A stretch of DNA of 64,000 nt from Candidatus Latescibacterota bacterium (GTDB lineage: Bacteria > Latescibacterota > UBA2968 > GCA-2709665). The translations under genes were made by a program, and so were the position numbers. Numbering within the stretch: position 1 is the first letter of the stretch; every line of letters starts with the position of its first letter. Positions 15,922 through 64,000 of the stretch are shown here, piece after piece. The notes below the pieces were generated by a model. It worked only from the letters and a program-made list of their open reading frames with translations. It ran no database searches and was not told the origin of the DNA. The stretch lies in contig CAXXJS010000011.1 in the NCBI GenBank assembly GCA_963662665.2, positions 1-64,000 on the forward strand. The letters run 5' to 3'.

Positions 15922-16113
15922 CCTTGATTCGTTATTTTTCCCGGACGTAAAACCGAATATATGCAGGTAGATAAAGGCGATTTAACGGCTGATTACCAGG
16001 ATACACCAGGTCACCGGACGTGAACTGAAAAAACGTCCTTCTGGACGACAGTTACGCCCCGCTTCAGGGGATTTCCTCGCGTCGCCGCAGTTGCTGTTTT
16101 ATTCAAATTGGGA
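15922..16113 (+). mobile_element. Non-autonomous MITE, IS1380-like ends, copy 1 (192 bp)
   Basis: Near-identical to 52991-53181 and to the reverse complement of 63636-63813; flanked by TTAA on both sides (15918-15921, 16114-16117); begins CCTTGATTCG. Confidence 0.8.
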
Positions 16114-52982: not shown

Positions 52983-52990
52983 AACGCTAA

Positions 52991-53181
52991 CCTTGATTCG
53001 CAATTCTTCGGGGAAGTAAAACCGAATATGTGCAAGTAGATAAAGGCGATTTAACTTCTGATTACCAGGATACACCAGGTCACTGGACGTGAACTGAAAA
53101 AACGTCCTTTTGGACGACCGTTACGCCCCGGTTCAGGGGTTTTCGTCGCGTCGCATAGTTGCAGTTTTATTCGGTTTGCGG
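52991..53181 (+). mobile_element. Non-autonomous MITE, IS1380-like ends, copy 2 (191 bp)
   Basis: Flanked by CTAA on both sides (52987-52990, 53182-53185); near-identical to copies 1 and 3. Confidence 0.8.
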
Positions 53182-54039
53182 CTAATCGCCCGGTACGTAC
53201 CGCGCCAACGTCTTCGAGAATCCCTCGTCTTCCAGCGATTCGGCCATGCGTACGCCTGCCGCGGAGGCTGAATCCCTGGTCAGACTGTCCGCGTTTCCCA
53301 TCAGCACGCCGACTCCCGCCGCCCTCAGCATCGGAAGATCGTTGTCCCCGTCTCCAATCGCAAGCGACTGAGAAAGCGAGACGCCGCACGCATCGCAGAT
53401 CTCGCGCAACGCCACCGCCTTGTTCACCTCCGGATGCATGATTTCTATCCGGTCGTCTCCCGTGCGCGCCAGGTAGAACCGTTGTCCGAACGCGGAACCC
53501 ATCTCCTCGAACACCTCTTCCCGTCGTTGCGGGCCCGGCAACACGATCATTTTGGGGGGCGGAACGAACGCCCGCGCCCTGGCCAACAGGTCCGCGTCGA
53601 GTACGATATTCACACCGGTCATTTGTACCAGATTCCCAATCCACTCCGTCTTCTCGTCGGTCAGATAAGCCTCGTTGAGTCCGCGTCCAACGGCCTCGCA
53701 CCTGCAGTAGATGAAATTCAACCGCCAATCGCCAATAAAATCCAACAGGGCAGATAGTCCATCCCCCGGCAATCGCCGCTCGTGCAACAACGGCCGCTCG
53801 TTATCCGCCCCATTTCCCAGCACGATGGCCCCATTGTAGCTCCCCACGTGCAGCGGCGGTCTCAGATCGGGCAAAAACGGCGCCAGGCTCTTCCCCACGT
53901 TTCGGCCGCTGATCGACGCCATCGCGATGCCGGCTCGTGCCAGCCGCCGTAGCGCCTCGACAGACTCGCTTGACATCCGGCCCCGATCGTCGAGCAGCGT
54001 GCCATCCAGATCAAACGCCACGAGCCGCACGTCACCCAT
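53182..54039 (-). CDS. Cof-type HAD-IIB family phosphatase
   Basis: LVAFDLDGTLL, ISGR, YNGA, VNKA, AIGDGDNDLPML, MGNA. Confidence 0.92.
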   Translation of the reverse strand: MGDVRLVAFDLDGTLLDDRGRMSSESVEALRRLARAGIAMASISGRNVGKSLAPFLPDLRPPLHVGSYNGAIVLGNGADNERPLLHERRLPGDGLSALLDFIGDWRLNFIYCRCEAVGRGLNEAYLTDEKTEWIGNLVQMTGVNIVLDADLLARARAFVPPPKMIVLPGPQRREEVFEEMGSAFGQRFYLARTGDDRIEIMHPEVNKAVALREICDACGVSLSQSLAIGDGDNDLPMLRAAGVGVLMGNADSLTRDSASAAGVRMAESLEDEGFSKTLARYVPGD

Positions 54040-63567: not shown

Positions 63568-63635
63568 GAGTATTTCCGAAACAAAGAAGCCGAGGCTGTT
63601 TCTGCCCCGGCCGACAAGTTCTGCATAGGGTTTAA

Positions 63636-63813
63636 CCCCAATACGAAGAAAACAGCAACTCGGCGACGCGACGAAAACCCCTGAAACGGGGCGTAACGGT
63701 CGTCAAAAAGGACGTTTTTTCAGTTCACGTCCAGTGACCTGGTGTATCCTGGTAATCCGAAGTCAAATCGCCTTTATCTAATTGCACATATTCGGTTTTA
63801 CTTCCCCGAAGAA
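63636..63813 (-). mobile_element. IS1380-like MITE copy 3, interrupted by a group II intron
   Basis: Reverse complement matches copy 2 from its nt 14 to the end; outer flank TTAA at 63632-63635. Confidence 0.8.
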
Positions 63814-64000
63814 GTAGAGTCGAGATGTGGCGCGGTGGTTTAGGAGTGGCCTGTCTGTTCCCGCCCCTTTCGTCTGGCGGTGCCTCAATAGCCCCTCCCT
63901 GCTCCGTTTCCACATCCCGCTCGTCGAACCGGACGTGCGGAGTTACCGCATCCGGCTCTCCGACGGACATCGCCTTCAGGTACACACTGCCCGATCTGCC
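63814..64000 (-). mobile_element. Group II intron 3' end (domains V and VI); remainder lies outside the window
   Basis: Domain V GAGCCGGATGCG-GTAA-CTCCGCACGTCCGGTTC (63958-63926) with AGC triad; domain VI stem GGGATGTGG...CCACATCTCGACTCT ending AC at 63814. Confidence 0.92.

Follow-up and report, generated by a model that had tools for sequence, protein, structure and literature searches.

A 756-nt group II intron without an open reading frame very probably spread by retrohoming into pre-existing miniature inverted-repeat elements of a Candidatus Latescibacterota genome

We analyzed a 64,000-nt stretch of DNA (the window; C11:1-64000) from the genome of a Candidatus Latescibacterota bacterium (G000; 66 contigs, 4.86 Mb), the right-hand end of which carries the 3′ part of a group II intron lying inside a copy of a MITE (miniature inverted-repeat transposable element). 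This intron, which is 756 nt long and lacks a protein-coding open reading frame (ORF), has very probably spread by retrohoming into copies of a 191-bp MITE, putatively of the IS1380 type, that were already in place. A direct read of the minus strand gives ...CCACATCTCGACTCTAC up to position 63814, followed by TTCTTCGGGGAAGTAAAACCGAATATGTGCAA, and the 3′ terminus of the intron is ...CCACAUCUCGACUCUAC, with its last base at 63814 (−). Intron nt 570–756 occupy 63814..64000 (−), and the remainder extends over C11:64001-64569, with the 5′ end GTGCGCC at 64569 (−), immediately 3′ of TTAACCTTGATTCGCAA. The 3′ exon is MITE nt 14–191 (63636..63813, −), and the first 13 MITE bases, CCTTGATTCGCAA, lie at C11:64570-64582. 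A 4-bp target site duplication (TSD), TTAA, encloses the whole, its right-hand copy at 63632..63635 (−) and its left-hand copy at C11:64583-64586. A previous sequence-only reading of the window had predicted that the left end of the MITE would stand just before the intron, beyond the window, and the contig does read ...CTGAA-TTAA-CCTTGATTCGCAA and then GTGCG at this place. The RT/maturase (reverse transcriptase/maturase) ORF that the same reading expected beyond 64000 is absent; the intron at this locus is ORF-less, and three further copies of the family code for the enzyme.

The MITE begins two bases past the stop codon of a 56-codon ORF located outside the window and ahead of a terminator-like hairpin with a T run (63588..63612, −), which lies 3′ of the MITE and is kept at the MITE-free orthologous site of a sister genome (G007). 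Since the intron lies in sense orientation between the stop codon and the hairpin, it would be transcribed within the 3′ untranslated region of the 56-codon ORF. A scan of the MITE consensus for terminator-like sites found none inside the element, the only such hairpin being the one downstream.

The earlier call of a group II intron ending at 63814 was borne out by two Rfam models. RF00029 (group II domains V–VI) matches 63814-63960 (−) with 35.7 bits (E = 3.8e-5) and with the columns of domain V, the hairpin of the catalytic triad, aligned in full; an insertion of ~75 nt in the domain VI loop keeps the match short of the gathering score of 40. For the same reason of score, a search of the whole window at the gathering threshold returned no Rfam match, and within the window the intron was seen only with an E-value threshold. 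RF02003 (group-II-D1D4-4), for which the gathering score is 49, matches C11:64406-64543 with 89.7 bits (E = 1.1e-19). Rfam alignment and folding place domain V (GAGCCGGAUGCGGUAACUCCGCACGUCCGGUUC) at 63926..63958 (−) and domain VI at 63817..63922 (−), and in the predicted minimum free energy fold of the last 151 nt (nt 606–756) domain V is canonical and domain VI long. In this fold A750 (window position 63820), 7 nt from the 3′ end ...UAC at 63814, is bulged, as is the branch point of group II introns, 7–8 nt before the 3′ splice site. All 11 copies in the genome begin with GTGCG and end with ...CUCUAC, in agreement with the GUGYG/AY rule of group II introns. At ~106 nt, domain VI is roughly three times its usual size, and its distal part (intron nt 684–717) is missing or different in copies of sister genomes G003, G005, G007 (L049), and G011.

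The host repeat had been described from the window as a multicopy MITE, and the genome as a whole agrees. The consensus is 191 bp long and non-coding, and has imperfect terminal inverted repeats (TIRs), with the ends CCTTGATTCG... and, as reverse complement, CCCCAATTCG.... BLAST found 77 segments genome-wide, of which 67 have a length of 150 nt or more; the set of 66 copies used here leaves out the row of contig C24, in which the intron stands in the opposite orientation. The 4-nt flanks are identical in 41 of the 66 copies (CTAA in 19, TTAA in 13, and seven other 4-mers in 9), differ at one base in 17, and differ at two or three bases in 8. The locus of the window copy is element-free in G007, where it reads ...CTGAA-GTCA-ATCCCTAT..., while its counterpart in G000 reads ...CTGAA-TTAA-(947 bp of MITE plus intron)-TTAA-ACCCTAT.... 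A 3,768-nt contig from sequencing run X6 of another study, with flanks ~98% identical, skips exactly 951 nt (C11:63632-64582), and at its joint four letters fit on either side. Two further loci, those of the copies on C37 and C40, are bare of both MITE and intron in G006. Such element-free orthologous sites, in which the 4-mer stands once, show that we are dealing with a true MITE that has inserted recently and in a lineage-specific manner.

Two empty copies of the MITE lie within the window. The 32-mer directly 3′ of the intron occurs at exactly two places in the window, 63782-63813 (−) and 53004-53035 (+), with none expected from 100 shuffles, so that the exact match to MITE copy 2 noticed in the sequence-only reading holds over 32/32 bases. 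The second occurrence follows CTAA-CCTTGATTCGCAA, and this copy 2 (52991..53181, +; TSD CTAA at 52987-52990 and 53182-53185) offers a perfect vacant homing site between 53003 and 53004 (UUCGCAA/UUCUUC), as had been proposed. Copy 1 (15922..16113, +; TSD TTAA on both sides) carries the site variant UUCGUUA/UUUUUC, its junction being TTCGTTA/TTTTTCCCGG, in agreement with the sequence-only reading.

A blastn search of G000 revealed eight ORF-less copies of 756 nt, five of them identical (including that of the window) and three with one change each, so that any two are at most 2 nt apart (≤0.26%). Alongside them are three full-length copies of 1,975 nt, all outside the window (C16:124183-126157, C61:80849-82823, and C24:8271-10245), which are 94.9–95.1% identical to the ORF-less form over nt 1–450 and 96.0% over nt 606–756, and two short, distant intron fragments (70% and 78% identity). 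The genome holds 11 domain V–VI matches, all below the gathering score and all belonging to these 11 copies. Each full-length copy has an open frame of 441 aa with no stops, whose product matches RVT_1 (2.7e-36), GIIM (2.4e-13), and TIGR04416 (354 bits against a cut-off of 300), has no endonuclease domain in a domain search, and finds its best solved-structure match in the GsI-IIC RT (6ar1, E = 1.1e-53). G000 has no group II RT/maturase gene besides these three, all of which are open. In the window copy and the seven others of its form, the RT and maturase (X) ORF is replaced by a 155-nt remnant of domain IV (DIV); ~60 nt of this form align with the surroundings of the protein start codon, the ATG itself being gone. 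In the introns that have been studied, the start-codon region (DIVa) is the place at which the protein binds. A tblastn search of plasmids returned only generically annotated relatives with at most 65% identity. In sequencing run X1 the contigs break at the repeat borders, and the depths (8–11 in the flanks and 83–98 in the intron pieces) resemble ~10 copies, yet such depths are not copy numbers.

All eight ORF-less copies are inserted at one position, between MITE bases 13 and 14, with CCTTGATTCGC(A/T)A before and TT(C/T)TTC after the intron, and upstream of the 4-bp duplication no similarity can be recognised among their flanks. Among the full-length copies, that of C61 occupies the same MITE position, behind CCTTGATTCGATT. 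That of C24 lies in a MITE with a perfect left-end hairpin (CCTTGATTCG...CGAATCAAGG), where it sits in the other hairpin arm and is inverted relative to the MITE. The third, on C16, is the only one of the 11 copies whose flank is not recognisably MITE; it lies in the near-palindrome CGGATTCGGAA/TTCCGGATCG. As an observation apart, the C24 host MITE (C24:7977-10273) has an internal duplication, with overlapping segments 8258-8105 and 8108-7988, and TTAA on both sides.

The shared position goes together with base pairing between the intron and its target. Exon-binding site 1 (EBS1), UUGCGAA at intron nt 214–220, lies in a 9-nt loop closed by CCCG/CGGG in the predicted fold and, in line with the complementarity anticipated from the window, pairs 7/7 with UUCGCAA, the last seven bases of the 5′ exon (MITE positions 7–13). 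This pairing is 7/7 in six of the eight ORF-less copies and 6/7 in the other two. A variable motif ~25 nt upstream of EBS1 (AAAAGGGUAAUG) may tentatively be taken as EBS2 (AAGG with CCUU), with a register that is inconsistent across lineages.

Occupancy follows the sequence of intron-binding site 1 (IBS1) in the host MITE. Eight of the 66 MITEs carry an ORF-less intron: six of 17 sites with TTCGCAA, two of three with TTCGCTA, and none of the 46 with any other variant. Among these 46 are 11 TTCGTAA sites, in which the pair at −3 would be G-U, two TTCGTTA sites (copy 1 of the window and one other), and the single TTCGATT site that holds the full-length copy of C61. Leaving out the latter site, C at −3 is found with an ORF-less intron in 8 of 22 MITEs compared with 0 of 43 others (Fisher's exact test, p = 6e-5, a value that overstates the case owing to kinship among the MITEs); for TTCGCAA against TTCGTAA alone p = 0.055, likewise overstated by MITE kinship. 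These counts bear on the earlier suggestion that copy 1 may be resistant, and they lend it weak support: its mismatch at −2 is by itself compatible with occupation (2/3 TTCGCTA sites occupied), and it is T at −3 that is never occupied (0/11 TTCGTAA and 0/2 TTCGTTA).

Eight near-identical introns at one MITE position might also have arisen in a single event, the intron having entered one MITE once and the 947-bp composite having then been multiplied by the transposase of the MITE. The occupied copies would suit such DNA transposition in that neither their 13 terminal MITE bases nor the opposite end is disrupted, and a 4-bp duplication encloses every composite; moreover, at all three loci examined, the sister genome or strain lacks MITE and intron together. 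However, whereas no more than 2 of 756 nt separate any two introns, the MITE sequences around them differ by 3.1–12.0% (mean 7.6%) in the eight hosts and come from different MITE subgroups, and every occupied MITE is nearer to empty copies than to the rest of the occupied set. One of them is identical to an empty MITE over the 161 columns that were kept for a tree of the 66 copies after removal of the first 32 columns, which contain the target site. On this tree the nine occupied rows are not one clade and need eight state changes (mean of 8.6 when shuffled, with 157 of 500 shuffles as low), and the starred branches alone force at least three changes of occupancy. Because the host MITEs differ by 3–12% and do not cluster on the tree, the insertions were independent, and multiplication of one composite is in our judgement highly improbable.

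Independent hosts with one intron could, alternatively, result from movement at the DNA level, with the intron carried from MITE to MITE by homologous recombination or gene conversion through the MITE flanks and with no RNA intermediate. Every site has ~180 bp of homology 3′ of the intron that could serve this purpose, but only 13 bp on the 5′ side. Nor are the junction bases homogenised, as C23 has TTTTTCCGGGACG, and C8 and C23 have GCTA compared with GCAA in the others; co-conversion tracts of MITE sequence are absent around the occupied sites. Occupancy instead follows one base that pairs with EBS1, and EBS1 co-varies with unrelated targets in sister species (see below), which leaves spread as DNA extremely improbable.

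Retrohoming, the reading that we prefer, has several points weighing against it. Eleven perfect sites are still empty. None of the three loci checked, out of eight, has a MITE that is occupied in one genome and empty in another; each time the MITE itself is absent from the sister genome or strain. GC skew within ±15 kb of the sites gives no strand bias, with five positive and three negative values for occupied sites and four and seven for empty perfect ones, contig-level skew being a poor proxy for the direction of replication. Finally, the EBS1 of the full-length copies fits their own 5′ exons at only 5/7 positions (−1 and −2 unpaired) and the exon of the other type at 7/7. Specifically, the C16 copy has EBS1 AAUCGAA behind ...UUCGGAA, and the C61 and C24 copies have UUUUGGA behind ...UUCGAUU. 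A single crossover does not explain this exchange because the two flanks of each full-length copy belong together; possible causes are an error in the three-copy consensus, short-patch conversion, or copies that splice poorly and still supply protein.

Some of these points would also suit the view that the copies are relics of a past burst and are now inert, with a defunct ribozyme or protein supply: the mismatches at −1/−2 affect all three protein-coding copies, and perfect targets remain unfilled. We regard this as unlikely, since the eight copies differ by no more than 2 nt, no stop interrupts any of the three RT/maturase frames, and both MITE and intron are missing at the window locus from the ~98%-identical X6 strain contig. 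Near-identity, open frames, and strain-level absence together point to very recent activity.

With retrohoming as the preferred explanation, a sequence of events may be outlined from what is established for group II introns. The RNA of the intron would be transcribed with its host MITE and then spliced, which would join the MITE exons CCTTGATTCGCAA and TTCTTCGGGG. The spliced RNA would be bound by the 441-aa RT/maturase supplied in trans by one of the three full-length sister introns, and the ribonucleoprotein would reverse-splice into DNA where EBS1 UUGCGAA can pair with UUCGCAA (MITE 7–13). Because the protein has no endonuclease domain, synthesis of complementary DNA would presumably be primed at replication forks.

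We looked for the origin of the MITE among IS1380-family insertion sequence (IS) elements. A single-copy element, C57:49338-50890, which scores 215 bits (cut-off, 180) and has the TSD TTAG, carries the ends CCTCAATGCGAAAATAA and, as reverse complement, CCTTAATTCCGCAAAAA, which by eye resemble the MITE ends, most of all the right end CCCCAATTCGAAAAAAA; it is the best candidate for an autonomous partner of the MITE. A second IS1380-family type is present in 15 near-identical copies of ~1.7 kb (387 bits against the same cut-off; TSD NTAR; e.g., C40:221628-222848 and C10:121250-122470), with ends TCTGAATAATTCA... and a left end that reads TCTGAATAATTCA/CAAAAAAGG, and all 15 are intron-free in G000. 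A search for an autonomous parent by way of MITE-like end pairs 0.5–3.5 kb apart gave 88 pairs, mostly noise and MITE-intron composites, and no clear candidate.

The association extends to the rest of the genus: the MITE is present in 14/14 sister genomes, and the intron family in many of them. ORF-less copies match contiguously over nt 1–756 in G006 (97%), G001 (89–92%), G009 (79–88%), and G007 (86–89%), and in G003, G005, G011, and one G007 copy the match is broken within domain VI. Full ORF-less matches number eight in G000 and, among the matches listed, at least 15 in G001 and at least six in G009. The DIV remnant is common to the species, which points to one old deletion of the ORF.

Across species, target choice varies with EBS1. 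In a 21-copy alignment, the EBS1 loop is the hypervariable spot in an otherwise conserved domain I. The EBS1 anchor was present in 37 of 39 copies examined, and 28 of these 37 pair at 6/7 or better with their own 5′ exon. Across 19 distinct EBS1/exon classes, cognate combinations average 5.7 pairs compared with 3.6 for the 324 non-cognate ones, only 11.7% of which reach six pairs. The targets themselves are diverse. An ORF-less intron of G009 with EBS1 UGACGAU lies behind TTCGTCA at the same position of another MITE subfamily; an intron of G006 with EBS1 UUUCGAA lies behind CCTCAATTCGAAA, of the type of the MITE right end and the C57 IS end; EBS1 CAUGGAU goes with ATCCATG in G001, G009, and G007; and EBS1 UGUCAGC goes with GCTGACA at another site in G001. 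In G013 (L052) and G016 (L029), the exons end in CCCGGATTATTCA and CCTGAATCATTCA, respectively, and the introns stand 13 nt into the end repeat of the IS1380 type that has 15 copies in G000. Inspection found no transposase beside the G006 intron site (behind TTAGCCTCAATTCGAAA).

The ATCCATG exon end belongs to a heptamer-like repeat (...ATCCTGTCCATCCTGTTCATCCATG, the intron following directly), which is the multicopy target of the EBS1 CAUGGAU introns L024, L039, L040, L042, and L044 in G001, L035 and L036 in G009, and L051 in G007. Two further observations concern the introns of sister genomes. GC-rich palindromes (GCCTGCCTG...CAGGCAGGC, 27–60 nt) occur in different intron loops of L023, L033, L036, and L037 (G009), L028 (G011), and L029 (G016), as well as at L022:1330-1375; they look like a repetitive extragenic palindrome (REP)-like repeat that invades introns. 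In G003, an ORF-less copy (L025; C52, ~2182-2219) starts right behind the last bases of another intron (...CCCTACTCTAC), in a tandem or nested arrangement.

A broader reading would take this endonuclease-less lineage as a specialised hyperparasite of IS1380-type ends, inserting 13 nt inside the repeat of IS elements and MITEs, retargeted by its 7-nt EBS1 loop only as repeat subfamilies diverge, and with ORF-less riders outnumbering their drivers genus-wide. On this reading the intron would split the end that the transposase must recognise and would both feed on and curb MITE proliferation. We offer it tentatively, as possible and rather doubtful.

The genus provides a natural retargeting experiment, in which the ribozyme is otherwise conserved and the EBS1 loop alone tracks MITE subfamilies, IS ends, and other repeats, and in which an ORF-less lineage proliferates genus-wide. 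Inside G000, occupied and unoccupied sites are told apart by one base at −3, C (a G-C pair) or T (a G-U pair). Such introns may serve as material for studying target discrimination without an endonuclease, the relations between driver proteins and rider introns, and nested mobile elements. The known mechanism of group II introns is left unchanged, no new mechanism is proposed, and introns of this kind have already been described in other bacteria.

In the parts covered of PMC9769881, PMC11602168, PMC4853749, and PMC6542083 (open full texts, with subscription journals outside the set), homing of a group II intron into a MITE is not described. The nearest intron-MITE nesting in this literature is the "MITEtron", in which a group I intron of Candidatus Thiomargarita nelsonii contains a MITE (PMC4853749). 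Physical nesting of the two kinds of element within a bacterial genome is common to both cases, but here a group II intron lies inside the MITE.

Homing into mobile elements is known from Sinorhizobium meliloti, where RmInt1 homes into ISRm2011-2 (PMC1802570) and RmInt2, an endonuclease-less intron of class D, homes into the inverted repeats of ISRm17, with two sites per element on opposite strands and a lagging-strand bias (PMC4615759). The present intron resembles RmInt2 in being endonuclease-less, in its probable homing by base pairing into a terminal inverted repeat, and in having sites on both strands (here the opposite arm on C24), and its relatives in G013 and G016 lie 13 nt inside an IS1380-type end repeat. 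Unlike in RmInt2, the host is mostly a non-coding MITE and not the IS itself, and the proliferating form is ORF-less. Class D proteins carry the C-terminal motif LX3AX3PXLF[V/A]HW (PMC4615759). By eye, this motif is absent from the C-terminus of the intron protein P0001 (...LEAQTRNFPWANA / ...GLTRLEAQTRNFPWANA), and class D (RmInt1-like) was set aside as an assignment.

Introns of class C (IIC) insert directly after a hairpin or terminator and have a short IBS1 of 3–4 nt. The present intron is like them in its small size, its lack of an endonuclease, its location in intergenic, non-coding DNA, and the best structure match of its protein, the GsI-IIC RT. We nevertheless rejected this class as well, as neither the 13 MITE bases nor the variable upstream DNA contains a hairpin and the 7-nt IBS1 shows co-variation with the target; for the same reasons, targeting would seem to proceed by extended base pairing and not by hairpin shape.

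Bacteria seldom carry introns without an ORF, and such introns almost always stand beside related protein-coding introns (Zimmerly and Semper 2015, PMC4424553). In Thermosynechococcus elongatus, the TeI3/TeI4 introns derive from one ORF deletion, with ORF-less copies that outnumber coding ones, are proposed to be mobilised in trans by "driver" proteins, and fall into EBS-defined families with different targets (Mohr et al. 2010, PMC2882425). The introns described here differ from TeI3/TeI4 in belonging to another phylum, in a protein without an endonuclease domain, and in having a MITE end as the main target, and they are known from sequence, whereas the TeI introns were assayed. The likeness lies in the architecture and in the population: as with TeI3 (ORF-less) and TeI4 (RT-encoding), the ORF has been deleted from domain IV with remnants of its start kept, the ORF-less copies are in the majority (here eight compared with three coding) beside a related protein-coding intron in the same genome, and EBS1 classes match different targets. 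By analogy, the ORF-less copies would be mobilised in trans, TeI3-like, by the protein of their relatives.

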